A DNA stretch of 64,000 nucleotides from Candidatus Hecatella orcuttiae (GTDB lineage Archaea > Thermoproteota > Bathyarchaeia > Hecatellales > Hecatellaceae), in assembly GCA_002011035.2 (NCBI GenBank), contig MTLY02000003.1, positions 192,001-256,000 of the forward strand, written 5' to 3'. The first letter of the stretch is position 1. The number at the start of each line of letters is the position of its first letter. The position numbers were made by a program, and so were the translations under genes. Under the pieces are notes generated by a model that worked only from the letters and a program-made list of their open reading frames with translations, was not told the DNA's origin and searched no databases. This document shows, piece after piece, positions 36,880 through 64,000 of this stretch.

Positions 36880-37025
36880 GCCCTGGTAGTATAGGCAGCC
36901 GTGATGCGGCTAGGGATACGCCGTATCCGGCTGGTAGAGTCCGGTCTAGTATGTGCGGCTGTTCCGTGGCTTTCCGGAGCCGAATCGCCCGTACGACCCG
37001 GGTTCAAATCCCGGCCAGGGCGCCA
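36880..37025 (+). tRNA. tRNA-Asp(GTC) with two introns (15/16 and 34/35); probable integration site
   Basis: GCCCTGG/CCAGGGC acceptor stem; introns 36895-36939 and 36962-36984; TTCAAAT T-loop; encoded CCA. Confidence 0.85.
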
Positions 37026-37071
37026 AACATTTAGTTTAAATCCCAAACATGTCCGATCTTCTATTAGGGCC

Positions 37072-43067: not shown

Positions 43068-43103
43068 CTTAACATAGAGAATGGGGTGTGAGAAATTTCT
43101 GAG

Positions 43104-43631: not shown

Positions 43632-43656
43632 AAGAGAAAGGAGGTGAAAGGTTAGA

Positions 43657-45533: not shown

Positions 45534-45599
45534 AGAGGAACTGAGTTCTAGGTGGAGGTGGTGAAGGGCGTAAAGGGCTGGGCTGCCAACCCGGCATCG

Positions 45600-45818
45600 C
45601 CATACTCAGTTAATAATTGGTGAAGATGCTTGGAAGGATGAAGGGTCAATATTTCTGAAGTCATGGAAAATGTAGGTCGATGATTCTTCTGTGGGAGAGG
45701 CGGGTGAAACTGTGAACAGCGTTAAATACCCTCTGCCGGTTTTCCGTCGTTCGCGAAGGCTTGATGTAAAGAGACTGTTCACCGAAGAGTAGAAAGAAAA
45801 CGCTGAAAAATACTCCCA
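45600..45818 (+). promoter_or_regulatory. Probable CRISPR leader
   Basis: Non-coding, TTAAATA box near 45722, adjoins first perfect repeat; degenerate repeat is at the far end. Confidence 0.55.
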
Positions 45819-47397: not shown

Positions 47398-47529
47398 GTG
47401 CTGCTCGAAGAAAAAAGGACGATAGTATTCGCTGATAGGTCTCACCTGTCTTATTGTCAGTTTCGTTAATTCCAAGAAACTTTTTTAGCATATTATGAGG
47501 CGTTATCTTCACAAGAAGGTCGTAAACCT

Positions 47530-50865: not shown

Positions 50866-51184
50866 CCTGCAAGACGCCCTGCACGTAGCCTGCTCCATGC
50901 ACGTACTTGACCTTCCGACCCTCCCTTGCCCACGTCCGCCTGTCTATGCTGTCAATCTTCAGCCACCGCTCCGTGCACCGGCCGCACAGCCCCCGCTCCA
51001 GCAGCCCTCCGCACCGCCGGGCCAGCCTAGCCCACCAGTCGCCCCAGTGCCGCTCCTGCTTGTAGGCTACGCCGCAGACCTCGCAGACCAGCTGCACGAC
51101 GACCGCTCCTCCGAATCCTGCCGTTGCCATGCCTGCCATCTCCGAATAAGGCTTTGCTGAGAACATATTTAAACTTCCTACCAC
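50834..51184 (-). CDS. Hypothetical Zn-finger protein
   Basis: CEVC...GLCGRC; divergent from the array. Confidence 0.45.
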   Translation of the reverse strand: MVGSLNMFSAKPYSEMAGMATAGFGGAVVVQLVCEVCGVAYKQERHWGDWWARLARRCGGLLERGLCGRCTERWLKIDSIDRRTWAREGRKVKYVHGAGYVQGVLQVKRRRPRLKS

Positions 51185-51243
51185 CTTAAGCCTTCTTTTT
51201 CAAAAACAGGCCTTAATAAAGGCCCTAGAGCCAAAAGAAACGG

Positions 51244-51256
51244 TATATTTAAATAT
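51244..51256. promoter_or_regulatory. Palindromic TATA-like box upstream of the structured RNA and gene array
   Basis: TATATTTAAATAT, flanked by an imperfect IR (CCTTCTTTTTCAAAAA / TTTTTGAAGAAGG). Confidence 0.55.
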
Positions 51257-52149: not shown

Positions 52150-52190
52150 TCCAAACCCCTCCTTTTTTGGCTCAATTCTCGGGGACAGCC

Positions 52191-52442
52191 ATGGAAGCCT
52201 TCACGGTGCCCAAATTCGACCTGCACATCCACGGAGGCCTGGTCCTCCGGCTCCGCGGCGGAGTGACCTTCCAGCGGCAGGGCGGCGGGTCGGCCGTCCT
52301 CATCCGCAACCACGCCTACACGGCCAGGCTCATCCGCCTGGGCGACTGCCCTTATCCGCTGCTGGTGGACGAAGACGGCGTGGTGGGCGTCGTCCCCAGG
52401 CTGCCGGCTAAGATAAGGCGGTGGCTGGGGGCGTTCCACTAG
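52191..52442 (+). CDS. Hypothetical protein
   Basis: ATG 10 nt after motif. Confidence 0.6.
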   Translation: MEAFTVPKFDLHIHGGLVLRLRGGVTFQRQGGGSAVLIRNHAYTARLIRLGDCPYPLLVDEDGVVGVVPRLPAKIRRWLGAFH

Positions 52443-52488
52443 GCCGACCCCGTGGGCCTCCCTTTTTCTGCCTCGGGGGGACCACCGC

Positions 52489-52623
52489 ATGGAGCGCTGT
52501 CCCAGGTGCGGCTACGCCTTCAACCCCAGGCCCAACTGGATGCTGACCGTCTGCCCGAAGTGCGGCGAAACCCTGGTGAGGGTTAAAGCCGGAGAAGACC
52601 GACTGGTGAAGGCTTTCGACTGA
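52489..52623 (+). CDS. 44-aa Zn-ribbon protein
   Basis: CPRCG...CPKCG; preceded by motif. Confidence 0.65.
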   Translation: MERCPRCGYAFNPRPNWMLTVCPKCGETLVRVKAGEDRLVKAFD

Positions 52624-52649
52624 GCCCTTTTTTCGGGGAAGGGGTTAGC

Positions 52650-52775
52650 GTGGTTTCATGGGTTGAGGTGGACGACCTAGCCCAGGATGTGGCTGAGAAG
52701 GCCGGGGACGACCTGGCTTCGAGGGTGAAGGAGCTGGCGGTGCGGCTGGCCGAAGAGGGCCTGACTGCCGAGTAG
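52650..52775 (+). CDS. 41-aa hypothetical protein
   Basis: Fills the gap between two motifs. Confidence 0.55.
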   Translation: MVSWVEVDDLAQDVAEKAGDDLASRVKELAVRLAEEGLTAE

Positions 52776-52796
52776 GCCCCTTTTCGGGGATTTTCG

Positions 52797-53525
52797 ATGG
52801 CTAAGGCTAAGGGTAAAGTCGTCGAGCAGGTGCTCGTTCAGGCCGCCAAGCCCGGTCAAAGACGGCAGGTGGCCGAGGAGCTGAAGAAGGCGGAGGCGGA
52901 GGGCCGGCGGTTCCACGGCTTCAAAGCCGACCTCAGGTACACCAGCCCCGAGTTCACCGTCACAACGCCCATCCGCTACGAGAAGCTCACCGCCAAGGAC
53001 GTGGAGGCCCGCATGAAGATCGTGCACCGCCACGTCAGCGGCGTCGAAGTCTCCCTCCGGCCGACACCCTACCACTGGGCGTACATGGACGCGGAGGGCC
53101 GGGAGTACCCGGAGGCCGAGGTCCGCCACTACCAGCTGCTCCCCGACGGCCGGGAGGTGGAGGTGCAACCGTTCCCCAGGACCAAGGTCTTGGAGGTCAA
53201 GAAGCTGCTGCCAGCCACCAGCCTCAGCGAGTTCCTCGTCGAAGGCCTCTACGAGGTCTGGTCCGACGCCCCAGGGCAGCTGCTGGAGTTCGCCGAATAC
53301 CTCCAACGCAAGGACGCCATGGCCGTGAGCAAGCTGAGCTTCGGCCGGGGCTTCAAGGAAAGCTACGCCCTCATCTACCCCATCTTCCAGGACGGCCGCT
53401 TCATCCTGGTGATGGCCCTGACCCAGAAGCGCGTCGAATACCGCCACTGGATGCCGGTGGAGGCTCAGGAGGCGAAGCCGAGGGAGGCTGTGCCCGTGGC
53501 CCAGTCGGTCTTGGAGGAAATCTAA
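52797..53525 (+). CDS. Ku-like DNA end-binding protein (putative)
   Basis: Pattern resembles the prokaryotic Ku core: HRH..G..V, GREY..AEVRHY, TKVLEV, YEV, AVSKLSF.RGFKESYALIYP. Confidence 0.55.
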   Translation: MAKAKGKVVEQVLVQAAKPGQRRQVAEELKKAEAEGRRFHGFKADLRYTSPEFTVTTPIRYEKLTAKDVEARMKIVHRHVSGVEVSLRPTPYHWAYMDAEGREYPEAEVRHYQLLPDGREVEVQPFPRTKVLEVKKLLPATSLSEFLVEGLYEVWSDAPGQLLEFAEYLQRKDAMAVSKLSFGRGFKESYALIYPIFQDGRFILVMALTQKRVEYRHWMPVEAQEAKPREAVPVAQSVLEEI

Positions 53526-53549
53526 GCCTCCAACCTTTCGGGGACAGGG

Positions 53550-53741
53550 TTGTCCTTATGTGTGGGCGTGAAGAGGAATCCGACGCTTGCAGTGGCCGGT
53601 GAGGGCGTGGAAAAGATGAGCAGAGACGAGCTGCTGGAGCTGGCGGGCGAATACCTGGAAACGGTCTGCTTTCTCCCGGCGAGGGTTATCAGGCGTGGGA
53701 AGCGGGCTGTCATCGTCTTGGAGCCTGAAAGCTACCCGTAG
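53550..53741 (+). CDS. Hypothetical protein, paralog of 54715-54906
   Basis: Shares VGVKR.PTL.VAGEGV.KM...EYLETV.F.PARVI.R...AVIVLEPESYP. Confidence 0.75.
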   Translation: MSLCVGVKRNPTLAVAGEGVEKMSRDELLELAGEYLETVCFLPARVIRRGKRAVIVLEPESYP

Positions 53742-53764
53742 CCGCCCTTTTTCGGGGGGGCCTC

Positions 53765-53900
53765 ATGGGATTCTGCTGTGAGCACCTCAAAGCCCAATCA
53801 GCCATGCTACCGGCTGATGTTCCTCTACTGGCTGTGCGAAGCCTGCTACAAGGCTCTCAAGGAAGGAAGCTTGGACGTGAAAATATACAGGCTGTCCTGA
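53765..53900 (+). pseudogene. Frameshifted small Zn-finger gene
   Basis: MGFCCEH... continues in another frame as CYRLMFLYWLCEACYKAL, ending just before the next motif. Confidence 0.45.
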
Positions 53901-53930
53901 GCTCCCAGGGGCTTTTCGGGGAGTCTGGAC

Positions 53931-54098
53931 GTGGCTGGGAAACGGAAGCTTAAGGAGTATGTAGTGGACCTCGAAAGCTTCACCGTGGAAGCCCGAGACC
54001 ACGATGAAGCCGTGGAGGCAACGCAGCGAAAACTCAAGCAGATGATGGCGGAGGGAAAGGTTGGCATCGACGCCGTGGTGGAGCTGAGCGACGGATGA
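53931..54098 (+). CDS. 55-aa hypothetical protein
   Basis: GTG 13 nt after motif. Confidence 0.6.
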   Translation: MAGKRKLKEYVVDLESFTVEARDHDEAVEATQRKLKQMMAEGKVGIDAVVELSDG

Positions 54099-54128
54099 GG
54101 CGGACACGCCTATTTTTCGGGGAACGAA

Positions 54129-54659
54129 TTGGAAAAGCTCTTCACCGACCTAGCCTTCGCGCTATCCCCCACCATCATCACCCACCAAGGCGGTTGGGGA
54201 GACACCGTTCCAGAGTGGCTGGTCGCAGAGATAAAGCTACAGAGGCTCGCCGAGAACCTGAGGAGGCTGAAGGGTGAAGCCGTCGAGGAGGCCGGCGACG
54301 CCGAGGCTCTGGCCTACCTGTACACGGCCTTCCTGAGCGTGCCGCCCTCCGAGAAGTGGACGAGAATCTACTCCTACCTCCTCGGTAAGGTTGCCCGCGG
54401 CAGGCTCCGGGTTCCCTCAGAAATCGAGGTCAAGGAGCTCTCAGATTACGAGCAGGAGAAGCTCCGGGAGCTGAAGCGGTGGATTTACAGGAAGCGGGCT
54501 GAAAGGGAAAGGCAGCGGCGCGGAGAGGAAGGCCTCGGAGTGCTTCAGCCCCCAAACCGGGCTTCAGCCAGCCTCAGAGCCCGCAGGGCGTGGGTTAAAA
54601 TCTACCGGAGGCGAGGCCAAGAGGATAAGGCCAAGGCTTTGGAGGAAGCCTTAGCCTAA
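54129..54659 (+). CDS. Hypothetical protein
   Basis: 176-aa ORF, TTG 10 nt after motif. Confidence 0.75.
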   Translation: MEKLFTDLAFALSPTIITHQGGWGDTVPEWLVAEIKLQRLAENLRRLKGEAVEEAGDAEALAYLYTAFLSVPPSEKWTRIYSYLLGKVARGRLRVPSEIEVKELSDYEQEKLRELKRWIYRKRAERERQRRGEEGLGVLQPPNRASASLRARRAWVKIYRRRGQEDKAKALEEALA

Positions 54660-54714
54660 ATTTCGGGCAGCGGGCGGAAACCCCGTTTATCCCCGTTCTC
54701 GGGGGCAGACCGAC

Positions 54715-54906
54715 ATGGTTTTCCGCGTCGGCGTCAAGAGGAAGCCTACGCTTCTGGTGGCAGGCGAAGGCGTCGACAAGATGGGCAGCGCCGCCCTCAT
54801 GGAGCTGGCCAGCGAGTACCTGGAAACAGTCCGCTTTGAGCCTGCCAGGGTCATAAAGCGCAGAGGCTGCGCCGTCATCGTCCTCGAGCCGGAAAGCTAC
54901 CCTTAA
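54715..54906 (+). CDS. Hypothetical protein, paralog of 53550-53741
   Basis: See paralog. Confidence 0.75.
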   Translation: MVFRVGVKRKPTLLVAGEGVDKMGSAALMELASEYLETVRFEPARVIKRRGCAVIVLEPESYP

Positions 54907-55059
54907 CCGAGGGGGTCTTTTTTCGGGGGAAGAGGGGGCCAGCCTTTGGGAAAATGCGTCGACTGCGGCAGAGAAACCGTGAGCCAGCCTGCCCGTCGTG
55001 CAGCACAACAGTCAACCTGGAAGAGGAGGAATAGTCGCCCTTATTTTCGGGGAGCAACC

Positions 55060-55374
55060 GTGGGCAGGAAGCGTTACGACTTTTTCAGGACGAGGTTCGT
55101 CGTCCAGCCCAAGAATTCGATTTTGTACGGGTCCGCCTCGAAGGTTAAAGCTCACCTCCTTGCACTCAACAGCATCTACGGTATCGGCGTCTCCGTCAAG
55201 GAGGTTCCAGGCGGAAACCTTGAAATCGTTACGAGGACTGGTCTGCCGGAGACGGCTAAAATGGACAGAAACTTCGTCCGCTACGTTCTGCAACACCATG
55301 CATATATTGTGGAGGAGGTCTTCGAAGGGCGGAGGTTTCGAGGCAGGAGGGAAATATGGGAGCCCGCGGAGTAG
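55060..55374 (+). CDS. Hypothetical protein
   Basis: GTG 11 nt after motif. Confidence 0.6.
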   Translation: MGRKRYDFFRTRFVVQPKNSILYGSASKVKAHLLALNSIYGIGVSVKEVPGGNLEIVTRTGLPETAKMDRNFVRYVLQHHAYIVEEVFEGRRFRGRREIWEPAE

Positions 55375-55403
55375 GCGAGAGCTCCCGTTTTTCGGGGAAG
55401 ACC

Positions 55404-55574
55404 ATGCCTCTGGTAGCCGTGTTTGTGAAGGAGAAGACGACGCCTGGAACTGTCCGCTACCGGGAGGAGGCCGGCGAAAACCCGACGACTCTGCGAACGG
55501 TGTACATCGAAAAATGGGCCGTGCAGAAATACGGCCTCGGAGACCGGATAAAGGTAACCGTGGAGCCGGCGTAG
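55404..55574 (+). CDS. 56-aa hypothetical protein
   Basis: ATG 10 nt after motif. Confidence 0.6.
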   Translation: MPLVAVFVKEKTTPGTVRYREEAGENPTTLRTVYIEKWAVQKYGLGDRIKVTVEPA

Positions 55575-55601
55575 CCCCCCGGTGCTCTTTCGGGGTTCGA
55601 C

Positions 55602-55838
55602 GTGAGGAGGGCTAGAACCGTCAGGGGGCTCCTCCGACAGCTGAGCCGCTGCCCGGAGTGCAGGGGAAGCCCTGCTGTGTTCTTCGGCAACGGCCTCTCC
55701 ATGTGCCAAGCCCACTGGGAAGCCTACGCGGAGGCCTTCGACTACGAGGACGGAAAATTCAAGCCCAGCGTTTTCGGGGGCGAGGATGGCGGAAAAGCGG
55801 CTGCTCAGGTCCTTCATAGCCGACCTCGAGCGGGTTAA
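55602..55838 (+). CDS. Small Zn-finger protein
   Basis: CPEC...CQAHW; GTG 10 nt after motif. Confidence 0.55.
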   Translation: MRRARTVRGLLRQLSRCPECRGSPAVFFGNGLSMCQAHWEAYAEAFDYEDGKFKPSVFGGEDGGKAAAQVLHSRPRAG

Positions 55839-56040
55839 AGACCTGCTCGAAGCCTACAACCTGGGCGAAGCCCGGCTGGCGGACGCCTGGGACTTCATCA
55901 GCCTCAGGCTTGACCAGTACAGGCTCCTGCTCAACCCACCCAAGAAACACACCGCATACCGCCGCAAAATCTGCGGCGGAACCTTCACCACGGCGGACGG
56001 AAGGGAAGGATGCACATGGCCACGCACGGCTACTCCTTGA
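55786..56040 (+). CDS. Hypothetical protein
   Basis: ATG 10 nt after motif. Confidence 0.5.
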   Translation: MAEKRLLRSFIADLERVKDLLEAYNLGEARLADAWDFISLRLDQYRLLLNPPKKHTAYRRKICGGTFTTADGREGCTWPRTATP

Positions 56041-56151
56041 AGGGGGCTGTGAAAAAGGGATACGCGGAGAAACTGAAGGAGCAAGTTTCCGCCCGGCCTT
56101 TCGGGGTTGATTGGCCGTACCCTAGTGCCCCGGACTACCGAGGTGGTTTAG

Positions 56152-56385
56152 ATGTCTATGGGACCTCCTAAATGTCCTGAATGCGGTGAACCCCTTAACG
56201 GAGTCTACTTTGATACCAGCGAATACTACGTCTTCGACCCGTCTGCCGGAACCTACCTTTCAGACGAAAAATCTGGCGAAGGCTACACAAAATGTCCCAA
56301 ATGCGACGCAGACCTTTTCGACCTATTCCCCAACGGCCCCATAAACTTCAAACCCAAACCCAGCACAAAGGGAGCGACCCGATGA
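56152..56385 (+). CDS. Zn-ribbon protein (lower GC, canonical GAGGTG SD)
   Basis: CPECG...CPKC. Confidence 0.65.
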   Translation: MSMGPPKCPECGEPLNGVYFDTSEYYVFDPSAGTYLSDEKSGEGYTKCPKCDADLFDLFPNGPINFKPKPSTKGATR

Positions 56386-56450
56386 TAACTCTAGGCTGTG
56401 CGACACTCTGGTGCACCATTCCTCTGGAGGTCATCCTTTCGGGGACAGCC

Positions 56451-57453
56451 GTGAGCATGGAAGTGGCTGAGCTTAAACCCAAACTGAAGGCTCTGCGAAG
56501 TCTCAGGGAAGTCCCGTTTACAGGCGACACGTGGCTTCAGGTGAAAGCCGACGGAGAGCTGGCCTTGGTGAAGTTTGAGGGCGGAGAGGCCGAGGCGGTG
56601 AACCGCTGGGGCACCGTCCACAGGGGGCTGCCCTGCCTCCGAGAGTTCGCCGAGGCCCTCAAGGCCAAGAGGCTTCGAAGCTTGGAGGCCTTGGCCGAGC
56701 TGTACGCGGAGGGCCTCCGCCTGCCGGAGTTCAGAAAGACCCTGACCCGGAAGCCCGAGGCGGTGAAGCTAGGCTTCTTCACCCTCCTGGCGGTCAACGG
56801 CGCCGGGGTCAAGAACGACTGGCCCTGGCAGATGGGGGAGGCTGGAGTCTTGGCTTGCAGCCAGCCGCCTGGCGGGGCCTCTGCCCTACCGGCGGGTGGT
56901 CGGCCTGCAGGAGGCGGAAGCCTTCTGGAAGGAGTGGGTGGAGGGCCGCGGCTACGAGGGCGTCGTAGCCCGGACGCCCCGGGGAGGCTTCAAAGTCAAG
57001 CCGGAGCTCACCGTGGACGCCGCGGTGGTGGGCGTCAAAAAGACCGAGCGGCTGAGGGTGGGAAGCGTGGTGACAAGCCTCCGCCTGGCCTTGATGAGCC
57101 CGGAGGGCGACCTGGTCCATGTGGGCGATGTCTCCAGCGGCATCGACCCGGAGACCGGGCGGAGGCTCCACGCCTTGGTCAAGCACTTCGCGGTGGGCGA
57201 AGACCGGGAAGCCTACCACGTCAGGCCGGTGCTCGTAGCCGAGGTGAGGTGCTTCGACGTATACCCCGGCCTGCGGCAGGTCTGGCGCTGGGACGGCCGC
57301 CGGTACGCAGCCCGGCAGCCCAGAAGCTTCTTCAGCCTCAAGTCTCCGGTGTTGGTCAGGTTCAGGGAGGACAAGCAGCTGAGGCCTGAAGACCTAGCCT
57401 TGGAGCAGATTCCCGAAGCAGGCCCTTTCTCTTTCGGGGAGGGGGAACCGTGA
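56451..57453 (+). pseudogene. ATP-dependent DNA ligase, frameshifted near the G5 run at 56834-56838
   Basis: QVKADG (motif I), AELY, GYEGVV, FKVKP, GDVSSG, VRFREDK split across two frames. Confidence 0.78.
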
Positions 57454-57572
57454 AGCTCTGCCCTCGCTGCTCCAACGCCATCCTGGACATGCGGCAGGAG
57501 CTAGACCCCATGGGGCGGCCTGTCCAGTTTTGGCACTGCTCCCGCTGCAACCACCGGTGGACGGAGACGTAA
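57450..57572 (+). CDS. 40-aa Zn ribbon, TFS/TFIIS C-ribbon-like
   Basis: CPRC...FWHCSRCNHRW. Confidence 0.55.
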   Translation: MKLCPRCSNAILDMRQELDPMGRPVQFWHCSRCNHRWTET

Positions 57573-57722
57573 GCTTCCAGTTTCGGGGAAACCGGGTCCC
57601 CTGTAAGTCCACGCCTACCCCGCTTCAACCAGCGACTAAGGTAGGCTGAAAAGTGGCGTGGGGTTTAGGGCGGTTTCAGCCCACCGGCCCCAAAGGCTGG
57701 CTCCATTTTTTTCGGGGATTTT

Positions 57723-57941
57723 ATGCCCATCTTAGGCTCGGCTGACTGCTACGAGTGCGAGGGGGAGAAAACCGTCCGGCTGGTCGTCGACGGCCGAGGA
57801 GTCTGGAGCCGGTGCTTCCGGTGCGGCTTCACCGAGTGGGAGTGGGCCCTGGGCGACAACCCCGCCTACCTGGACTGCCTGGCGGAAAAATACCGCGTCG
57901 ACAAAGAAGCCATCGTAGACGCCCTCGAAGAGGCGGGGTGA
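57723..57941 (+). CDS. Small Zn-finger protein
   Basis: CYEC...CFRCG; ATG 9 nt after motif. Confidence 0.65.
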   Translation: MPILGSADCYECEGEKTVRLVVDGRGVWSRCFRCGFTEWEWALGDNPAYLDCLAEKYRVDKEAIVDALEEAG

Positions 57942-58236
57942 CCCTGAAACAGTCAGCTATTTTGAGGTCGTCAACCCTAAGCTGGCGTCCTATAAAATCT
58001 TCTTCCCCGCGGACATATCCTGCTGGACTTGGAGAGGCGGCGAGCCCTTCCCCGACTTCATCCACCGGGTTGTCGTCGTCGCCTCCAGAGGCTGCCATCA
58101 GTGGACTTTGGATGAACTGGAAAAGCTCAGCATGGAAGCTCCTGAAAGGGAGCGGCGACGGCGGGCTGCCAGACGGGCGGCCTTGAGGCGAAGGCTGAGG
58201 CCGACCTGACCCCGGTTTTTCCTTTCGGGGACCACC

Positions 58237-59360
58237 ATGGAAGGCCGAAGTTTAACCCCAAGCCAGCAAGCCTACCTGAAGAAGCTGGGTGTCTCCGACC
58301 CCGGCCGGTTGACCGCCGGGCAGAAGGCCTACCTCACCATCCTGGGCCGTAGGGAAGGCGTCGAGCCTCCCAAGCCCGTCAAAGCCTCAGCGTACCAGCC
58401 TCTGGGCCCCGAGGAGCTGGCGGCCAGGGGTGTGGGAAGCCTCAGGTTCGACCGGGCCGCCGACCTGACCTGGGAGCGCTACGGCATCGTGGAGGTGCCC
58501 ATAGCCTACGGAGGCCAGCCCTCCGGCTACAAGGCCGTCATCCGCAAAGGCCAGCTGGTTCAGATAGCCGGCCGGGGCTACCGCCTCCTGCCCAACGAGG
58601 AGGTTGTCCAGCTGGCGGACGAGACCGCTGAAGCCCTGGGGGCCAAGCCCTTCACCGAGTTCCGAGGCCGCTGGTTCGCCCCCATGGGCAACCACGTCAT
58701 CTACAACCGGGCTGAGACGCAGGTTCACGCCCTCTACGCCTTCGACGAGCCGGTGAAGGTGGAGGGCGTCGACACGGTGCACCTGGGCTTCGCCGTGCAC
58801 AACAGCATAGACGGCAGCTGCGGCTTCGGTGTTGGCGCCTTCACGTTCCGACAGTCTTAACAGTCGCCCGGAAGTGGGTGGAAGTCTTAAAAAGGGCGGC
58901 TGTAAGACCGGAAAACGCCTGCGCCAACATGGTGCTGATGGGCCTCCGCGGCTACTCCATGCCCTTCGACGAGCGGCGGGTGCTGGCCTGGGTCTACCAG
59001 CGCCACACCTCCAGGCTCAGGGTGGACAGGCCCAGCCTCCAGGACACCATCCTCAGGGTGGTGGACCGGGGGCGGGAGGTCCTGGAAGCCTACCGGCGGA
59101 TGGCCCTCGAACGGCTCAGCGAACCCGTAGCCCGCCGGATAGCCGAGTCGGAGCTGCCCCTCCGGGTGCTGCCCGACTTCATCGAAGTCGAAACCCTCGA
59201 AGACGGCCGCAGGGCGCTGAAGGGGTTCAGCCCCCAGGCAACCCTCTGGGACGCCTACAATTCCGTCAGCGCCGCCATCTGGCACAACGCCAAGTCGGAC
59301 ATCTCCACCAAGCTCGACCAGTTCAACGTCCTCCACGCAGCCCTGCCCCTGGCACGGTGA
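58237..59360 (+). CDS. DUF932-like protein interrupted by a 62-nt BHB-type intron (353 aa spliced)
   Basis: YRLLPNEEV, NSIDGS, FR-HA-CANM after splicing, H(T)S, TLWDAYN. Confidence 0.8.
58853..58914 (+). other. Putative bulge-helix-bulge mRNA intron
   Basis: TCCG/CGGA central helix, ACA and AAA bulges, long inner stem GTCTTA-A-CAGTCGCCC / GGGCGGCTG-TAAGAC. Confidence 0.78.
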
Positions 59361-59389
59361 ACCGTGCCGCCTGTTTCGGGGGAACCTGC

Positions 59390-59617
59390 GTGAGAAACCC
59401 GGCCTCGGTTGAGCCTACGCTTGACCACGTGCCCAATCCCTTCCAAATCCTCAACGCCTGGACCTATCTGCGAGCCGTGCAAAACGCCCATCGACGCTTC
59501 CTCCTACGCCTCCTCAGCAGCCGGAGGCTCAGAAGCAGGGAGCTGGAGAGAGCGGTTCTGTGGGACGTCTACGAAGCCCTTAAAACCGAAATCGTGTTCG
59601 CCCTCCCTAAGCCTTAG
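59390..59617 (+). CDS. Hypothetical protein
   Basis: GTG 12 nt after motif. Confidence 0.55.
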   Translation: MRNPASVEPTLDHVPNPFQILNAWTYLRAVQNAHRRFLLRLLSSRRLRSRELERAVLWDVYEALKTEIVFALPKP

Positions 59618-59640
59618 CCTCGCCGTTTCGGGGAGCGCCC

Positions 59641-59757
59641 ATGGTCACAGCCCGAACGGAGCTCTGCGACCTTCAAAAAATCTTCTGGGACATCTACAAC
59701 GTAACCAGGAAAGGAAGAGGACTGAAACCTCTGCCTTACCCCAAAAAGAGGACCTGA
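59641..59757 (+). CDS. 38-aa hypothetical protein
   Basis: ATG 11 nt after motif. Confidence 0.45.
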   Translation: MVTARTELCDLQKIFWDIYNVTRKGRGLKPLPYPKKRT

Positions 59758-60061
59758 CCTGCCCTGTGCGCTGAACCCTTTTTTTCGGGGGGACGGATGC
59801 GTCCCCAGGAGGCTCGGTGATGGCTCAGACGGATTTTCCCCAGGAACTCATCGAACCCATCAAGGCTTTAGCCAACCGAACACGCCGGAAGCCCGTAACT
59901 TCGGTATCGACGCCCCTGGAACGCCCCACGACTCTCATTATGCGCTGTCAAACTTTGGGCGCAGATTACTGAAAAGCCTCATCCAGATGCTGGAGCCTGA
60001 AACGGCGTCCGCGACGAGCTGAAGCTCCTTTAGCCCTCGGCGTTTTTCGGGGAGAATCAAA

Positions 60062-60298
60062 ATGCAGGTTCAGGTTAAGACGCCTCCCGGCGTCGAGCTG
60101 AAAGACCGTCGGTCTTGCACCCGCTGCGCCCACCTCAACATCTGCGCCGTCTTCAGGGCCGTCGCCCCGCTGCTGGAAAGCTTCAAGGGCAAGGACGGAC
60201 AGGGCAAGCCGCCCTTCGACGCCAGGAGGCTGGCGGAGGTCTGCGATGAGTATCTCCCCGGCTACCGGGTGATGGAGGAGCCGAAGATCGAGCCGTGA
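60062..60298 (+). CDS. Small Cys-rich protein
   Basis: CTRCAHLNIC...C. Confidence 0.65.
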   Translation: MQVQVKTPPGVELKDRRSCTRCAHLNICAVFRAVAPLLESFKGKDGQGKPPFDARRLAEVCDEYLPGYRVMEEPKIEP

Positions 60299-60321
60299 AG
60301 GCGGCCCTTTCGGGGATGACC

Positions 60322-60498
60322 GTGGCCGACACCATCACCGTCTACCATCCGAAGACAGGGAGGAGGCTGAGGCTGGAAAGAACGGGCTCAGACCGGAAGC
60401 TGGGCATCTGCTACTACGCTGACAGGAAGCAGGGCGTCTACGTCGAAGACCGGTCTTCCTTTGACCAGGAAAACGAAATCGAAATCATCTTTCACTAG
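60322..60498 (+). CDS. Hypothetical protein
   Basis: GTG 10 nt after motif. Confidence 0.55.
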   Translation: MADTITVYHPKTGRRLRLERTGSDRKLGICYYADRKQGVYVEDRSSFDQENEIEIIFH

Positions 60499-60522
60499 CC
60501 CCGCAATTTCCGGGGAACCGTC

Positions 60523-60804
60523 TTGAAATGTGCGGCTAAAAGCCTCGTCGAAGACAGGGGTCTGAGGCTGTGCCCGCACGGGCACTCCCTCGAAACCGTG
60601 GACAGGCCCTCCCGGCGGCTGTGCGGAGGCTGCGAGTTTCTGAAGCCCTCCAGGTTCGCCGTGGTCACCGAGGTTGGAGGGCGGAGGCTGACGGCGGCCT
60701 ACTACGACAGCTTGGAGGAAGCGGAGAGGGCGGCTGCGGCCCTGACCGAGGGCAGCATGAGCAACCCTCGGGCTGGATGCGTCTACAGAGTGGAGGAAGC
60801 TTAG
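60523..60804 (+). CDS. Hypothetical protein
   Basis: TTG 11 nt after motif. Confidence 0.6.
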   Translation: MKCAAKSLVEDRGLRLCPHGHSLETVDRPSRRLCGGCEFLKPSRFAVVTEVGGRRLTAAYYDSLEEAERAAAALTEGSMSNPRAGCVYRVEEA

Positions 60805-61072
60805 GGAAGGCGGCCGCCTGACCTTTCGGGGTTAGGAAAGTTCCACACCGTCGGGGGTAGTCTTGAGCTTCAAAAAATATGAAGCCCAGTTCACCGCTTT
60901 AGCTAAACTCTTCAGGTCCTACGCCGACAGAAGGCACGTCGAGAGGCTGAAAACTTCCATTCGGAAGAAAATAGCGTGTTCTCCGAAAGAGTACGAACAG
61001 TTTGTGAGGAAAGCGAGTGAAAGTATCACAGAAACATCATAAACTATATATCTAAGGATATTATATTATACT

Positions 61073-61255
61073 TTGAGAGGCTCAAGGGTATTGAAAAGAG
61101 TCTTAGTCTGCTTACCTGAGGGTGTTTGGGAAGTCATAGAAAAGGAGTTTAAAGGTAAGCTTGGAGGAAAAAGTTCTGAAATTTTAAGAAACATAATAAT
61201 GGCTTACCTTTCAGAAAAAGGTATTCTCGAGAAGGTTAGGGAGGTCAAAGCTTGA
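61073..61255 (+). CDS. Ribbon-helix-helix regulator (possible R-M controller)
   Basis: KRVLVCLPE...SEILRNIIMAYL. Confidence 0.7.
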   Translation: MRGSRVLKRVLVCLPEGVWEVIEKEFKGKLGGKSSEILRNIIMAYLSEKGILEKVREVKA

Positions 61256-61296
61256 GCAAGAGAAGAAACTCCCTTAGAGAGCTAGATTAAGAGAAA

Positions 61297-62253
61297 TTGA
61301 ATAATGGGGAAAATAGTATGTGGAAAGTTTATCTTGCGGATTGTTTTGAATGGATGAAGAAATGTGAACCTAACGAGTTTATAGCCATAGTTACTGATCC
61401 ACCCTACAGTCTAGAAGAGTTTAAACGTGAAAACTTAGAGAAAATGAAACGTGGGAGCGGAGGGGTATGGCGTATACCACCTAAAATAGGGGGGGTTGAG
61501 AGGAATCCATTACCTCGCTTTACAGTTTTCTCGGCAGAACATCATAAAATTATGTTTAACTTCTTTCACAATTGGGCTAAACTGGCTTATAGGGTGCTTG
61601 TACCTGGCGGGCATCTTGTAATAGCCTCAACACCAATTTTTCTTCCTACGGTTGCACATGCCATCATAGAAGGGGGGTTTGAGCCTAGAGGCGTAATAGT
61701 CAGACTTGTTCAAACGTTAAGGGGAGGATTTAGACCCAAAAATGCAGAAGAAGAATTTAAGGAATTGTCTACGATACCTAGAGCACATTGGGAGCCTTGG
61801 GCGATATTCCGAAAACCTATCGAGAAAGGGTCAACAGTGGCGGAGAACTTGAAAAAATGGAAGTCCGGGGCCTTAAAAAGAGAACCCGACGGAAGACCGT
61901 TCCCTGACGTTATACCGAGTGAAAGAACCCCCAAAGAGGAGGAGGCTATAGCACCCCACCCTACACTTAAACCCCAAAGTTTTATGCGTAGAATAATACG
62001 AGCAGTAGTGCCACTTAATGAAGGAAAAGTGCTTGATCCATTTTGTGGAGCTGGTTCAACCATAGCGGCTATCGAAGCCCTAGGTTTTGACGGTATTGGC
62101 ATAGAGGTTAACCCTGAATATTATGAAATGGCCCTTAAAGCTATTCCTCAATTAGCGAGGGTAAATGTTGACCCATGGCTCTTTGAAAGGAGAATAAATA
62201 AAGGGAGTAAAATGTTAGTGTTAACAGAATTTCTGTTAAAAGAAGGATGCTAA
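61297..62253 (+). CDS. DNA N4/N6 methyltransferase (beta class)
   Basis: TDPPY, HPTLKP, LDPFCGAGST. Confidence 0.93.
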   Translation: MNNGENSMWKVYLADCFEWMKKCEPNEFIAIVTDPPYSLEEFKRENLEKMKRGSGGVWRIPPKIGGVERNPLPRFTVFSAEHHKIMFNFFHNWAKLAYRVLVPGGHLVIASTPIFLPTVAHAIIEGGFEPRGVIVRLVQTLRGGFRPKNAEEEFKELSTIPRAHWEPWAIFRKPIEKGSTVAENLKKWKSGALKREPDGRPFPDVIPSERTPKEEEAIAPHPTLKPQSFMRRIIRAVVPLNEGKVLDPFCGAGSTIAAIEALGFDGIGIEVNPEYYEMALKAIPQLARVNVDPWLFERRINKGSKMLVLTEFLLKEGC

Positions 62254-62814
62254 GTTACTTTTCCCAAGATTACGTTCAAAGACTTTTTTCATCTTTTTAT
62301 CCCAAGATTTTTTCTCAACAGAAGCCGTTATCGTCCTCTTGCTTTCATCGCTTCTTCCACGCCATATGAAGTCGTCTTCAGATAATTCTCCAAGCCAAAC
62401 TACTCTAAAACTTGGTAGTCCTCTATCATCTGTGTCATATTCAGCTACAAGAAACCAACCGCTTGTAACGTTATGTCCTACAGTACTCCAAGGGCTTCTC
62501 ATCGTAGCTTTAACTTCGATTCCTACGCCAGTAGTCGGATTCTTCAGGTCTGGAAAAGCCGTATTTGGAAGTTTTTTAAACCCGCTTAACCTATCTAGCA
62601 ACCTTGTCATAAAATCGCTAACTAAGCCACTATATTGATTATGTCTAATTAATTGAGCAAGAGGTGGAATGTCATGAGTTGCTGAGCCATCATTTATTGC
62701 CTTAAATATTTTCTTAACTTCTAACAGTGTTTTCTCTAAATGTTCTATTGTAAGTCCTTTAGGCATAGGTACATCATAGAAAATGCCATCAAGCATTTCT
62801 GACCTCTTATTCAT
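62236..62814 (-). CDS. Putative type II restriction endonuclease
   Basis: FPDL...GIEVKAT PD-(D/E)XK motif; convergent with the MTase; low GC. Confidence 0.75.
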   Translation of the reverse strand: MNKRSEMLDGIFYDVPMPKGLTIEHLEKTLLEVKKIFKAINDGSATHDIPPLAQLIRHNQYSGLVSDFMTRLLDRLSGFKKLPNTAFPDLKNPTTGVGIEVKATMRSPWSTVGHNVTSGWFLVAEYDTDDRGLPSFRVVWLGELSEDDFIWRGRSDESKRTITASVEKKSWDKKMKKVFERNLGKSNLASFF

Positions 62815-62985
62815 TTATCATCTCCTTTAATTAATAACGGTAGCAAAATATTTAAGTCATCATGACAAAGTTCACAGAACCGCCTTAAAGAATCTATAAC
62901 TTCCTTTCGGGGATCGAGGAAAGTGCTGGAATGGGTGAAAGCTTAAACAGAGCGACCCAACCCTTTTTTCGGGGGATGAAACAGG

Positions 62986-63420
62986 TTGGTGCATTTTCTG
63001 GAGAGAGATGAAAGCGAGGAGGTCCACAGCTACGACCTGCCGTTGGGCTACCAGTCCTTCAAAGACGCCAAGAGCCTGTATGTGAGGGAGAAGATCAAAA
63101 AAGCCGAGTGGAAGGACCGCTGGTACATCGTCGACCTGCTGTGGCTTGAGGCCTGCGTCCTAGACCCCCCGCGCTCGTGGGCCTATGGCATGAAGTGCGA
63201 CCACCTCATCCAGAGGTACTTCGACGACTGGCTGGCCATCCTCCAGGAGCTGAGACCCAAAGACTGGCGGAAGTTCGTGGAAGAAGAGAAAAAGTGGAAC
63301 CCCCACCTCTTCGAGTCTGAGGAAGAGCGCAGGCGGAAGCTGGAACGGCAGCGCGAAGAAGAGCGGCGGGAGACTGAGAGAATCAAGCGGAGCTGGATAG
63401 AGCTCGGCGGTAGGGAATAA
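62986..63420 (+). CDS. Hypothetical protein
   Basis: 144-aa ORF after motif. Confidence 0.65.
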   Translation: MVHFLERDESEEVHSYDLPLGYQSFKDAKSLYVREKIKKAEWKDRWYIVDLLWLEACVLDPPRSWAYGMKCDHLIQRYFDDWLAILQELRPKDWRKFVEEEKKWNPHLFESEEERRRKLERQREEERRETERIKRSWIELGGRE

Positions 63421-63922
63421 GCTCCCTGGGCACCGGACCCTCCCCCTCAGGAGGAGATATACTGGTTTCGCTCACCGGCTCCGTCCAGAAAGCCGGCACC
63501 TTTTCTCCCACCGCCGCCTCGTTGTATTCCCTCAGAGCCTTCTCCAGCTCCTTGCCTACGCCGTCGTTCGGATAGTCGTAGAAGACCACCGTTATTACCG
63601 TGTTCCCTTCGACGTCGCGCCTCCACTTCCCTACGCTGTCCCACTGTGTGTAGGCCTTCAGGAACTCAAAGAGCTTCTCCTTATGCTTGGGAACCACTAC
63701 GGTAAGCCTTTCGGGCTTCGTTTTAAACTCGTCCTTTACGAAGAGGAAGCTGAAGATTTTTTTCCTAGCCTCCAAAGCCTTCGGGGAAAGCCTGTCGAAG
63801 GAAGGTGGGGCCGCAGCCTTCTTCAACAGCCCGTGCTTTACCAGAAACTTTCCCCCAGCCTTCCGCCGGGGCGCAAGCTCTCTGAAACTTTTTCTGAGCC
63901 GCTCGGAGAAGGTTCTGCCCAC
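63383..63922 (-). CDS. Hypothetical protein
   Basis: 179-aa ORF with AGGTGA SD. Confidence 0.6.
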   Translation of the reverse strand: MGRTFSERLRKSFRELAPRRKAGGKFLVKHGLLKKAAAPPSFDRLSPKALEARKKIFSFLFVKDEFKTKPERLTVVVPKHKEKLFEFLKAYTQWDSVGKWRRDVEGNTVITVVFYDYPNDGVGKELEKALREYNEAAVGEKVPAFWTEPVSETSISPPEGEGPVPRELIPYRRALSSSA

Positions 63923-64000
63923 GGCTGCTCACCTGAAAAATTCGGGGATGCGCCGTGTTCGAGGAGCTGGGCGACGAGGAGCTGAAGAGCCGCTACCTCA

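Follow-up and report, generated by a model that had tools for sequence, protein, structure and literature searches.

The window, the whole stretch of 64,000 nucleotides from Candidatus Hecatella orcuttiae that was analysed, contains a tRNA gene with an adjoining integrase gene and, further downstream, a run of small + strand genes preceded by A/T-rich boxes.

36880..37027, + strand: intron-bearing tRNA gene, its 3' end CCCGGCCAGGGCGCCAAA (37010-37027) repeated at window coordinate 89500
36901..38304, + strand: tyrosine-recombinase (phage integrase family) gene adjoining the tRNA (Pfam PF00589, E 3.7e-10)
51165..51256, no strand: A/T-rich boxes ATATTTAAA, TTAATAAA and TATATTTAAATAT, upstream of the + strand gene run

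The two copies of CCCGGCCAGGGCGCCAAA are putative att sites of an integrated island of about 52.5 kb that holds the block of motifs listed below. Only part of the tRNA, at 36939-37025, is recognised by ARAGORN, and the true start of the integrase is probably downstream of 36901. Ku-like and PCNA-like proteins are among the products of this mobile element, which may be of viral or plasmid nature; Pfam and PHROGs were blank for nearly all of its proteins and no candidate RNA-binding protein was identified among them. The A/T-rich boxes point to 51165-51256 as the candidate promoter region of the + strand gene run, and the intergenic gaps of 52-60.8 kb hold nothing comparable. A search for a conserved upstream box found none. 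In Crenarchaea the first gene of an operon tends to lack a leader, and the internal genes use Shine-Dalgarno (SD) signals. The genes of the run are closely packed, with a median intergenic distance of 40 nt in our own gene list. They are given here with the motif TTTCGGGG and its variants, the distance in nt being that from the first G of the motif to the start codon.

52176..52442, + strand: variant motif TTCTCGGGGA, first G 10 nt before ATG 52191; 83-aa gene
52631..52775, + strand: TTTCGGGG before GTG 52650 (distance 15); 41-aa ORF
52782..53525, + strand: TTTCGGGG before ATG 52797 (distance 11); 242-aa Ku-like protein
53536..53741, + strand: TTTCGGGG before TTG 53550 (distance 10); 63 aa, paralogue of 54715-54906 (71% identity)
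53750..53953, + strand: TTTCGGGG before ATG 53765 (distance 11); 62 aa
53914..54098, + strand: TTTCGGGG within the 3' end of the preceding gene, before GTG 53931 (distance 13); 55 aa
54115..54659, + strand: TTTCGGGG before TTG 54129 (distance 10); 176 aa
54697..54906, + strand: variant TTCTCGGGGG before ATG 54715 (distance 14); 63-aa paralogue of the 53550 gene
54921..55374, + strand: motifs at 54921 and 55045 ahead of a single reading frame, before TTG 54946 (distance 21) and GTG 55060 (distance 11; 104 aa)
55390..55574, + strand: TTTCGGGG before ATG 55404 (distance 10); 56 aa
55588..55838, + strand: TTTCGGGG before GTG 55602 (distance 10); 78 aa
55772..56040, + strand: TTTCGGGG within the preceding gene, before ATG 55786 (distance 10); 84 aa
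56099..56385, + strand: motif leading only to a 4-codon mini-ORF (56111-56125); the next gene, a 77-aa zinc ribbon starting at ATG 56152, is led by canonical GAGGTGG and not by the motif
56437..57389, + strand: TTTCGGGG before GTG 56451 (distance 10); 312 aa
57432..57572, + strand: TTTCGGGG before GTG 57450 (distance 14); 40-aa ORF with two CxxC pairs
57581..57588, + strand: orphan motif, no start codon 5-21 nt from the first G
57710..57941, + strand: TTTCGGGG before ATG 57723 (distance 9); 72 aa, CxxC pairs
58223..58860, + strand: TTTCGGGG before ATG 58237 (distance 10); 207 aa
59374..59617, + strand: TTTCGGGG before GTG 59390 (distance 12); 75 aa
59626..59757, + strand: TTTCGGGG before ATG 59641 (distance 11); 38 aa
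59783..59972, + strand: motif before a mini-ORF of seven codons (59797-59820); its stop overlaps the start (GTG 59817) of a 51-aa ORF, which has a CAGGAGG signal of its own
60045..60298, + strand: TTTCGGGG before ATG 60062 (distance 13); 78 aa, homologue of 80 aa in L020
60308..60498, + strand: TTTCGGGG before GTG 60322 (distance 10); 58 aa
60505..60804, + strand: variant TTTCCGGGGA before TTG 60523 (distance 12); 93 aa
60824..60831, + strand: orphan motif, 35 nt before TTG 60863
60863..62900, no strand: motif-free insert of lower G+C (about 0.50) with an N6/N4 DNA methyltransferase (61297-62253) and one - strand ORF
62905..63420, + strand: motif at 62905 before a 7-codon mini-ORF; motif at 62967 before TTG 62986 (distance 15; 144 aa)
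63780..63786, + strand: TTCGGGG after a C where others have T, lacking a start codon and probably there by chance
63941..64000, + strand: ATTCGGGGA before GTG 63955 (distance 11); 66-aa ORF crossing the window end

Beyond the window, up to coordinate 71609, there are seven more copies, one before a 625-aa PCNA-fusion gene and another before a DUF5131 gene. Certain genes inside the block carry ordinary GAGGTGG or AGGAGG signals, so TTTCGGGG is not obligatory. The motif predicts tiny ORFs of 37-56 aa (38-56 aa in the initial annotation), and several tiny motif-led ORFs carry paired CxxC motifs.

That annotation had counted 27 exact copies of TTCGGGG and about five one-mismatch variants on the + strand. 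The count is exact, with 27 copies on the + strand at 52632-63947 and none on the - strand of the same stretch, and five start-linked one-mismatch variants of TTTCGGGG without an exact TTCGGGG are found in the window (starts 51997, 52191, 54715, 55356 and 60523). Both strands of the whole window contain 39 copies, compared with a mean of 17.0 and a maximum of 31 in shuffles, none of 100 reaching 39. The other 12 copies are scattered over 1-51749, four on the + and eight on the - strand, and the first 36 kb hold seven of the 12. The array continues past the window end to 71609 with a total of 34 copies and is the sole TTCGGGG cluster genome-wide. The exact 8-mer TTTCGGGG, TTCGGGG with an extra T, occurs 30 times in 20 kb, all on the + strand, where 1.56 (sd 1.32, maximum 7) would be expected. 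The 20-kb block that was set against the rest of the genome holds 31 copies. In the remaining 1.69 Mb there are 57 copies on both strands, making it about 90-fold rarer outside the array in this 1.75-Mb archaeal genome. What the initial annotation had observed is confirmed.

The motif is sharper than an ordinary SD signal: single-substitution variants of TTTCGGGG occur 0-2 times each on the + strand of the 20-kb block against 31 exact copies. In that block no other base stands in place of the C that separates T-run and GGGG (TTTAGGGG, TTTTGGGG and TTTGGGGG are each at 0 on the + strand). CGGGG follows T-runs of 3-7, with as many as 9 in L020, and 29 of 34 copies have pyrimidines at positions -2 and -3.

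Of the 34 copies, 26 are followed, 8-15 nt after the first G, by an ATG, GTG or TTG that opens an ORF of 37 aa or more. The distance is 10 nt in ten of these and 11 nt in eight, the mode of 10-11 agreeing with the initial annotation. Eight of the 34 have no such ORF at the right distance, and three of the eight lead only mini-ORFs of 4-7 codons. Elsewhere in the genome 35 of 290 TTCGGGG copies have a start codon at 8-15 nt, with flat distances. The statement that most copies lie just after a stop codon holds for 12 of the 26 motifs (7-29 nt, own gene list) and fails for the rest, two being embedded in upstream coding sequence and the others lying 43-2979 nt beyond the upstream stop. The anchor of the motif is the start codon and not the stop codon.

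Host signals were compared in 2809 ORFs of at least 100 aa. These use GGAGG- and GGTGA-like signals. Beside those peaks, counts of GGGG rise to 33-47 per position where the first G is at -14 to -10, from about 8-17 at -30 to -17, and GGGGA is concentrated at -12 to -10. The SD-like spacing described earlier places the GGGG of the start-anchored motif where the host has its GGGG/GGGGA peak. The host GGAGG peak is at -13/-14 and the GGGG of the element starts 2-3 nt nearer the start codon, a spacing that would be atypical for the host if the GGAG register were used. Pairing of GGGG with CCUC of the 16S tail gives -5.7 kcal/mol in Duplexfold. For 24 motif-led starts (own list), the upstream 22 nt bind the 16S tail with a mean of -8.05, whereas 519 host ORFs reach -6.76 and random 22-mers -5.58. 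TTTC is not pairable with the mature 16S tail, and the mature anti-SD leaves it unexplained, as had been suspected. TTTC is not enriched ahead of the 2809 host ORFs, and TTCGGGG is found within 30 nt upstream of only seven of them, with no positional peak. The motif is therefore neither equally frequent before host genes nor fully explained by the anti-SD.

Metagenomic relatives were found with the Ku-like protein as marker: two independent ones (L019 and L020) and one variant (L022), L021 being near-identical to L020 and not counted separately. Proteins of the element are 54-57% identical to those of L019 and L020. Exact TTTCGGGG occurs three times in L019 (G+C 0.40) and five times in L020 (G+C 0.50), all eight copies on the + strand and 10-13 nt ahead of ATG, GTG or TTG. 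The 8-mer is kept at orthologous junctions whose flanks have diverged and are unalignable; the 83-aa gene at ATG 52191 has a conserved counterpart in L020, with TCGTCGGGGA at the junction. L022 (44% identity) has TTTCGGAGG, in which the G-run is tied to the canonical GGAGG register and TTTC is retained. In more distant relatives TTTCGGGG is absent, and in four metagenomic runs only the same sequence was found, with no variants of more than 90% identity.

Lying about 10 bases before the starts of nearly all small genes of the element, TTTCGGGG looks like a private ribosome-binding signal that ordinary ribosome pairing explains only by half. A motif with this position, enrichment, strand specificity, conservation and SD-compatibility is, on balance, probably a lineage-specific start-associated sequence, TTTCGGGG(A), consisting of an SD variant with an unexplained extension and serving as the ribosome-binding signal of the internal cistrons of the element. 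These cistrons, in one or a few long + strand operons, would use it for ribosome binding. The GGGG half would be an SD variant pairing with CCUC of the 16S 3' tail (G-C, G-C, G.U, G-C) 6-7 nt before the start, while the TTTC half and the exactness of the 8-mer would be under selection and not read by the mature anti-SD. From the geometry we infer that the motif acts at translation; we also take it that a second reader probably exists besides the anti-SD. The 8-mer would then be read as RNA at initiation by something beyond the anti-SD, most likely an RNA-binding factor encoded by the element or by the host, or else a contact in the mRNA exit path of the ribosome.

A dedicated reader would be superfluous if an oligo-T tract, acting as an archaeal pause or termination signal or as an unstructured U-rich leader, merely abutted a GGGG SD and the 8-mer were a locally optimal ribosome-binding site. 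The T-runs and the pyrimidines at -2 and -3 fit such a composite, GGGG by itself is an SD that the host can use, and a hairpin is followed by a T-run at about eight + strand sites. However, terminator-like sites number 27 against 26.2 in shuffles, the motif is tied to the start and not to the upstream stop, and the C before GGGG is unreplaced. The exact 8-mer is also kept at 40% and 50% G+C, where a U-rich leader requires no selection, and ordinary SDs are degenerate while this motif is not. The composite is unlikely.

Repression at the DNA level, likened to that of mycobacteriophage L5, is distinctly unlikely. A repressor of the element would bind asymmetric double-stranded DNA at about 30 stoperator-like sites, block transcription of the operon and silence the integrated element. 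The element is indeed integrated, and the roughly 30 short asymmetric sites have one orientation to transcription and lie mostly in short intergenic gaps. A DNA operator needs no near-constant 10-11 nt to a start codon, though, and these sites hold a host-type SD at the host SD position. No copy is found in the candidate promoter region at 51165-51256, and no DNA-binding domain was recognised in the element proteins, which is weak evidence because small archaeal repressors are often missed.

It is very improbable that the motif is chiefly a recombination junction, where single-gene cassettes would be exchanged, lost, duplicated and reshuffled through the microhomology of a shared 8-15 nt; such a role might at most be a by-product. 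The gene directly after the Ku-like gene is a homologue of the 58237 gene in L020 and of the 56451 gene in L019, and the window has about 13 extra motif-led genes between the Ku-like gene and the positions of those homologues. The 56-aa gene at 55404 has a motif-led homologue of 56 aa on the opposite side of the Ku-like gene in L020, where the 207-aa gene (58237) is also fused with the next gene (58878-59360) into a 397-aa ORF. The motif-led 63-aa gene is duplicated, and junction repeats share up to 14-15 identical bases. The gains and losses, the one relocation and the one duplication all concern whole motif-led genes, as breakage at the motif would have it, but the mosaicism of any compact genome would produce the same pattern; a breakpoint at a gene border therefore has no diagnostic value, and at about 55% protein identity DNA breakpoints are beyond resolution. 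A recombination site requires no fixed distance to a start codon, an inverted repeat or attC-like structure is absent, and the sole recombinase is 15 kb away at the tRNA att site of the island.

An extended anti-SD can hardly be the answer. UUUCG would pair with CGAAA one base past CCUCCU in the 16S 3' trailer, UUUCGGGGA giving a duplex of nine pairs with one bulged A that needs a longer, immature or alternatively processed, 16S 3' end. Both 16S copies read CCTCCT followed by ACGAAACC, though they diverge directly afterwards; Duplexfold gives -8.2 kcal/mol with the trailer, in exactly this structure, against -5.7 without it; and a family-level relative reads CCT then TCGAAAT. However, the trailer reads AAGAAAA or TAGAAAA in most relatives in the class, so that a match between a purine-rich trailer and a pyrimidine tract can easily arise by chance. 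Host GGAGG shows no extended complementarity upstream (A is enriched at -1, with no G at -3 and no C at -4), and an A follows GGGG in only three of the eight sites in relatives. In archaea for which it is known, the 16S 3' end lies directly after CCUCC.

An endonuclease cutting the polycistronic transcript at or beside UUUCGGGG, to give monocistronic mRNAs with short leaders, has just as slight a chance. The motif is regularly placed between cistrons and as sharply defined as a nuclease recognition site, but two copies lie within upstream coding sequence and there is no conserved hairpin or other structure (GGGG finds an upstream partner at 31 of 42 sites, where shuffles predict 31.4). Among the functions that the initial annotation had offered (translation, termination, processing or recombination), translation gains support from the anchoring to starts at SD distance and termination finds none, the distance from the upstream stop ranging from -66 to +2979 nt with no excess of hairpins over shuffles.

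If the motif is indeed a start-associated ribosome-binding signal, it would give a common translational handle on the roughly 30 genes of the element. SAS motifs are described in Cluster K mycobacteriophages and in Cluster EF Microbacterium phages (PMC3203893, PMC7302621), and the first of these papers sets SAS against the L5 stoperators. The motif of the element has the same anatomy, and TTTCGGGG is best read as the archaeal counterpart of these actinobacteriophage SAS motifs.

The window contains 39 copies of the heptamer TTCGGGG, where 17.0 copies are expected, and 39 or more copies were reached in 0 of 100 shuffles. The 27 copies that the initial annotation had counted on the plus strand were recovered between positions 52632 and 63947, with 0 copies on the minus strand of the same stretch. 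This cluster is unique within the genome, and the array runs beyond the window to coordinate 71609 with 34 copies in total. The full motif is the 8-mer UUUCGGGG / TTTCGGGG, composed of a TTTC half and a GGGG half. There are 30-31 exact copies of TTTCGGGG in the 20-kb block, all on the plus strand and none on the minus strand, compared with 1.56 expected, and 57 in the other 1.69 Mb of the genome when both strands are summed. It is the most frequent 8-mer of the block (31 copies, the next unrelated 8-mer having 12), and each of its single-substitution variants is found 0-2 times on the plus strand. A matrix of the 34 sites gives the consensus yyTTTCGGGGa, with a T directly 5' of TTCGGGG in 31 copies, pyrimidines at the two preceding positions in 29 and an A directly 3' in 22; no position beyond -3 is informative.

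The first G lies 8-15 nt before the ATG, GTG or TTG of an ORF of at least 37 amino acids in 26 of the 34 copies. The distance is 10 nt in ten cases and 11 nt in eight, so that the gap between GGGG and the start codon at this mode is 6-7 nt. For the rest of the genome, 35 of 290 TTCGGGG copies are start-linked and their distances are flat. The 26 motif-led genes begin with ATG (10), GTG (12) or TTG (4). Distances from the upstream stop codon to the motif range from -66 to +2979 nt in the gene list compiled here; 12 of the 26 motifs start 7-29 nt past the upstream stop and two are embedded in the preceding coding sequence. The motif belongs to the downstream gene and not to the preceding one, because its distance to the start is fixed while its distance to the stop is variable. 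Eight copies have no assigned gene:

56100, 59784 and 62906, plus strand: three copies leading mini-ORFs of 4-7 codons
54922, plus strand: one copy before a TTG (distance 21) that is upstream of and in frame with the motif-led GTG at 55060
66454, plus strand: first member of a tandem pair
57582, 60825 and 63780, plus strand: three copies without a start

The three motif-led mini-ORFs could encode leader peptides or act as coupling devices. Their copies (56099-56125, 59783-59820 and 62905-62946) lie shortly upstream of genes with a canonical Shine-Dalgarno (SD) sequence of their own (GAGGTGG, CAGGAGG).

The 3' end of both 16S copies is GGATCACCTCCT. The mature tail GGAUCACCUCCU has no partner for TTTC, nor for the flanking C and A, and thus the motif is not fully explained by the host anti-SD; the initial annotation had named a full explanation of this kind as one that would overturn its proposal. 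Upstream of 2809 host ORFs (minimum length 100 amino acids, 30 nt examined for each), the first G of GGAGG peaks at -15 to -12, GGTGA at -12 and -11, GGGGA at -12 to -10, and GGGG at -14 to -10, with 33-47 occurrences per position compared with about 8-17 at -30 to -17. The host peak for GGGG indicates that this is an SD variant usable by the host and placed as in the element. Compared with the host GGAGG peak, the beginning of the element GGGG is shifted by 2-3 nt towards the start codon. Pairing of GGGG with CCUC amounts to -5.7 kcal/mol (Duplexfold). For 24 motif-led starts taken from our own list, the preceding 22 nt bind the 16S tail at a mean of -8.05; the corresponding values are -6.76 in a set of 519 host ORFs and -5.58 in random 22-mers. 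Complementarity to the 16S tail 5-10 nt before the start, as in a canonical SD, is provided by the GGGG half alone. A canonical SD in the sense of a degenerate family explained by the anti-SD was rejected, since 31 exact copies stand against 0-2 per variant and TTTC is left unaccounted for.

On balance, the motif is probably a lineage-specific, start-associated ribosome-binding signal, in which the GGGG half would serve as an SD variant and the TTTC half would be read by something besides the mature anti-SD.

The motif block is part of a larger structure. The genome (1.75 Mb in three contigs, the window being on contig 3) belongs to an archaeal host with intron-bearing tRNA genes; one of these (19918-20029, 112 nt) appears in the Rfam scan and not in the ARAGORN output. 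The last 18 bases of the 3' end of another tRNA gene are repeated at 89500 (L004:5500-5517), 52.5 kb downstream, and together with an adjoining tyrosine recombinase gene this repeat indicates an integrated island of about 52.5 kb that is compositionally mosaic. The repeats are likely the att sites of a large composite island, and the range in G+C (0.39-0.66 in 2-kb windows) suggests nested insertions. Its main features are as follows.

36880-37027, with its end at 37017-37027: intron-bearing tRNA gene, adjoined by the tyrosine recombinase gene
First listed from the tRNA end: RadA-like gene
41124-48720: type III CRISPR-Cas module with an HD-domain Cas10, RAMP proteins, a Cmr3-like protein and a Csm6 CARF-HEPN gene
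About 45.8-47.3 kb: CRISPR array of 21 repeats (37-nt repeat)
Listed next after the motif block: PCNA fusion gene and DUF5131 gene
L003:559-2436, window coordinates 64559-66436: the PCNA fusion, 625 amino acids, with PCNA at residues ~20-255
L003:7898-14770, ~71.9-78.8 kb, minus strand: cluster of Rad50/Mre11/HerA/NurA type, ~0.40 G+C
After this cluster: SNF2-DnaJ fusion helicase gene and restriction-enzyme-like gene

A very strong G+C skew (0.30-0.33) extends across 42-46 kb. The 20 CRISPR spacers gave no match to the element or its relatives except for one of 14 nt. The motif block has a G+C of about 0.62 compared with about 0.53 for the host, and is interrupted by a methyltransferase insert without the motif. 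Pfam and PHROGs are blank for nearly all proteins of the block. Language-model features and the Atlas model provide a lead that the 242-amino-acid protein at 52797-53525 resembles Ku, with a feature score of 0.92, 179 shared features and structural rows that give PF02735; Pfam is blank for it, and its predicted structure (pLDDT 43.6) is too poor for use. A Ku-like protein would fit an element with linear DNA ends. The PCNA part of the 625-amino-acid protein is 33-37% identical to PCNAs of the host family, and the C-terminal region of ~370 amino acids has no detectable relatives. Searches with the fusion returned only itself among 5.8 billion proteins (at similar lengths) and ordinary host PCNAs only among 61 related genomes.

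Homologues of the Ku-like protein with 42-67% identity are present in public protein sets, and five metagenome contigs encode one. Three exact copies of TTTCGGGG were found in contig L019 (G+C 0.40) and five in contig L020 (G+C 0.50); contigs L020 and L021 are counted as one lineage because they are near-identical over their shared part. All eight copies are on the plus strand, and an ATG, GTG or TTG follows 10-13 nt after their first G. The motif is found at both orthologous and non-orthologous junctions in L019 and L020/L021, that is, in two independent relatives, to which a variant in contig L022 can be added. At the orthologous junctions (before the Ku-like, 56-aa, 207/397-aa, 78/80-aa and 312-aa genes) the 8-mer persists between spacer and upstream sequences that cannot be aligned, and the 83-aa gene has the variant TCGGGGA upstream in both the window and L020. 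L022, with a homologue of 44% identity, has TTTCGGAGG six bases before ATG; the G-run is therefore tied to the register of canonical GGAGG, with TTTC kept. The motif is absent from six more distant homologues found among 400 other genomes of the same class; one of the distant homologues (L031) has AGGAGG or TAGGAGG signals. A further relative, L035, is syntenic and comes from the family of the host; it is without the motif as well. Since near relatives keep the motif and distant ones are without it, it is a conserved innovation of a sub-lineage that spans 40-63% G+C.

Wider searches returned little. A megablast against the phage collection found no close DNA relatives, the PCNA-fusion and 312-aa proteins have no relatives in viral contigs, and alignment of the Ku-like protein gave no match in the viral_contigs or genome_contigs collections. 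Two scans of viral_contigs for triple motifs gave 3 loci, all tandem repeats inside genes, and 0 loci. The same scan of genome_contigs gave 109 stretches; those analysed, a subset, consist for the most part of periodically spaced repeats of tandem or CRISPR-like type, without any start-linked gene array of the present kind. A contig of 6.1 kb from a Woesearchaeota MAG (L047) carries 16 copies of a repeat of ~35 nt, ...ACTCTCTACAATTATTT-N5-TTTCGGGGAG, which on the opposite strand reads CTCCCCGAAA-N5-AAATAATTGTAGAGAGT and lies ~40 nt upstream of minus-strand ORFs. It looks like the repeated BRE/TATA promoter of another archaeal element, and neither its position nor its strand logic relates it to the motif.

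That a dedicated element protein reads the 8-mer on about 30 mRNAs is a tentative idea with a minority chance; if true, it would be the first such translational regulon in an archaeal mobile element. A plain composite of a U-tract and an SD is less probable still. Pyrimidines do precede the core. TCGGGG and TTCGGGG have no positional peak upstream of the 2809 host ORFs, and 7 of these ORFs have TTCGGGG in the 30 nt examined, which contradicts the other outcome named against the initial proposal, that the motif is equally frequent upstream of host genes.

A DNA operator of the stoperator type is slightly less probable than such a composite. Stoperators act on DNA through a repressor, have no fixed distance to starts and are accompanied by a related operator at the early promoter. 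In this element the candidate promoter region (51165-51256) contains no copy of the motif, and no repressor was recognised among the element proteins with Pfam and PHROGs. The likeness to the stoperators of mycobacteriophage L5 and Cluster A phages lies in about 30 short asymmetric sites that occupy short gaps, follow the direction of transcription and belong to an element that is temperate or integrated (PMC3203893). The difference is that the distance to the start is fixed here and that the site doubles as an SD.

The initial annotation had also proposed a recombination site for cassette shuffling, which is improbable. The gene order in L020 is 83 aa, 56 aa, Ku-like, 397 aa (corresponding to the window's own 207 + 160 aa) and 80 aa. 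Between the Ku-like and 207-aa genes the window has ~13 extra motif-led genes compared with L020, the 56-aa gene is downstream of Ku in the window and upstream in L020, and the 312-aa homologue directly follows Ku in L019. All differences in gene content thus consist of whole motif-led genes, which fits cassette-like turnover and is not diagnostic of a recombination function. Sites of the integron attC type are imperfect inverted repeats that fold, with an adjacent dedicated integrase and attI; this candidate was rejected, as the motif has no inverted repeat and the sole integrase is at the tRNA att site, 15 kb away. In four metagenomic DNA runs, examined over 20 kb, the sequence is unchanged and fragmented, and structural variants that could locate indel breakpoints are absent. 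Contigs of three runs share sequence with the element either from 53341 (L015:1841) onward or up to 58651 (L015:7151), and outside this match they are unrelated to it. Both match ends are inside genes and may point to chimeric contigs or to a variant element.

An extended 16S tail as the pairing partner is very improbable. The trailer after both 16S copies is ACGAAACC, UUUCG is complementary to CGAAA, and UUUCGGGGA could form nine pairs, with one bulged A, at -8.2 kcal/mol. UUUCGGGG(A) would then be an extended SD that pairs with CCUCCU and, one base further, with CGAAA, and the element genes would be translated preferentially by small subunits with a 16S 3' end longer than the canonical one, immature or alternatively processed, which would constitute a private ribosome pool. 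However, host genes have no extra complementarity upstream of GGAGG, purine-rich trailers (AAGAAAA, TAGAAAA) are frequent in the class, and the trailing A is not kept in the relatives. Against the archaeal SSU model the 16S scores 1416.9 bits, and it contains an insertion. One of the two sequences is full, has an insertion of ~665 nt and is on contig 2 (G000:C2:464353-466521, L001); the other is partial and opens contig 3, on which the window lies (G000:C3:4-640, L002). They are 87-91% identical over the shared 3' part, and identical in the 3' tail and the first 8 trailer bases. The two types are either divergent rRNA operons or the result of a chimeric bin (contamination estimate 4.25%).

A processing site is as improbable as the extended pairing. 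The motif as ALTERNATIVES was tested as a hairpin, a terminator, an upstream box and an rRNA complement. Upstream pairing in a hairpin that sequesters GGGG was found at 31 of 42 sites compared with 31.4 in shuffles, and terminator-like sites number 27 compared with 26.2, which is no excess. The archaeal oligo-T intrinsic terminator is a T-run, usually of at least five, shortly after the stop of the terminated gene; the motif was rejected as such because of the variable stop distance, the fixed distance to the next start and the T-runs of often 3-4. Complementarity elsewhere in rRNA was also rejected, as the copies of CCCCGAA and CCCGAAA there are ordinary GAAA-tetraloop hairpins. The 34-site matrix contains no conserved upstream box, so that there is no promoter per gene. 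Promoter-like A/T-rich boxes are found at 51165-51256, with none comparable in the gaps of 52-60.8 kb, and the median intergenic distance is 40 nt, which together point to one or a few long operons.

In practical terms the motif is a dependable marker of gene starts, which exposes genes of 37-56 aa that are lost to ORF-length cut-offs. The tiny ORFs of the block look genuine: a metagenomic relative contains homologues of those of 56 and 78 aa that are likewise led by the motif, those of 40, 72 and 77 aa have paired CxxC motifs, and a 63-aa ORF has a paralogue 1.1 kb away that is 71% identical. Some of the genes revealed encode zinc-ribbon mini-proteins. The element lineage is uncharacterised, and the motif can also be used to spot more of its members in metagenomes; it is a compact experimental target of 8 nt.

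Full-text literature searches gave, among the top results listed, no description of this motif. The motif resembles a canonical SD in position, in the complementarity of GGGG to CCUC and in its use before internal operon genes. It differs in being invariant and element-specific, in that half of the conserved positions (TTTC) are unpaired with the mature 16S tail and in that the flanking C and A avoid pairing. Phage T4 encodes RegA, a single reader that acts on many phage mRNAs at their ribosome-binding regions; its sites are degenerate and rich in A/U, and they overlap with the start codon. By analogy, one reader for many mRNAs is the kind of mechanism that might apply to the TTTC extension, although no RegA-like protein was detectable among the element proteins.

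The closest parallel is the start-associated sequence (SAS), known in actinobacteriophages since 2011 and still lacking a mechanism. The SAS of Cluster K mycobacteriophages (GGGATAGGAGCCC) has 13 bp and 11-19 copies located 3-7 bp before starts, in one orientation, with an SD core between unpaired conserved flanks, and is nearly absent from the host (PMC3203893). Microbacterium phages of Cluster EF have the same kind of motif, GGGAAAGGACCCC (PMC7302621), and both sources give the function as unknown (PMC3203893, PMC7302621). The archaeal motif shares with it a short, asymmetric form, many copies (10-19 SAS per genome) in virtually one orientation, a ribosome-binding position few bases before starts, an SD core with conserved flanks unable to pair with 16S rRNA, a conservation far above that of normal ribosome-binding sites, near absence from the host genome, and conservation in relatives before unrelated gene families (PMC3203893, PMC7302621). 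The differences are also clear. The motif is found in an integrated element of an archaeal host, has 8-9 nt and not 13, shows no sequence similarity to GGGATAGGAGCCC or GGGAAAGGACCCC, and has more copies (31-34 in 20 kb). Its unexplained part is solely 5' of the SD. Compared with the SAS, its SD core is the wobble variant GGGG and not AGGAG, there is no preference for ATG, and the upstream inverted-repeat extension (ESAS, at about half of the SAS sites) is absent, with upstream pairing not above that of shuffles. The motif thus has the operational features of the SAS class, which is an operational class and not a homologous family. It adds an independent and unrelated example in an archaeal element, with more copies and a shorter and sharper motif in which an SD-like half is cleanly separated from an unexplained one. 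This suggests that mobile elements resort repeatedly to 'private' ribosome-binding signals and that these are not a quirk of one phage cluster.
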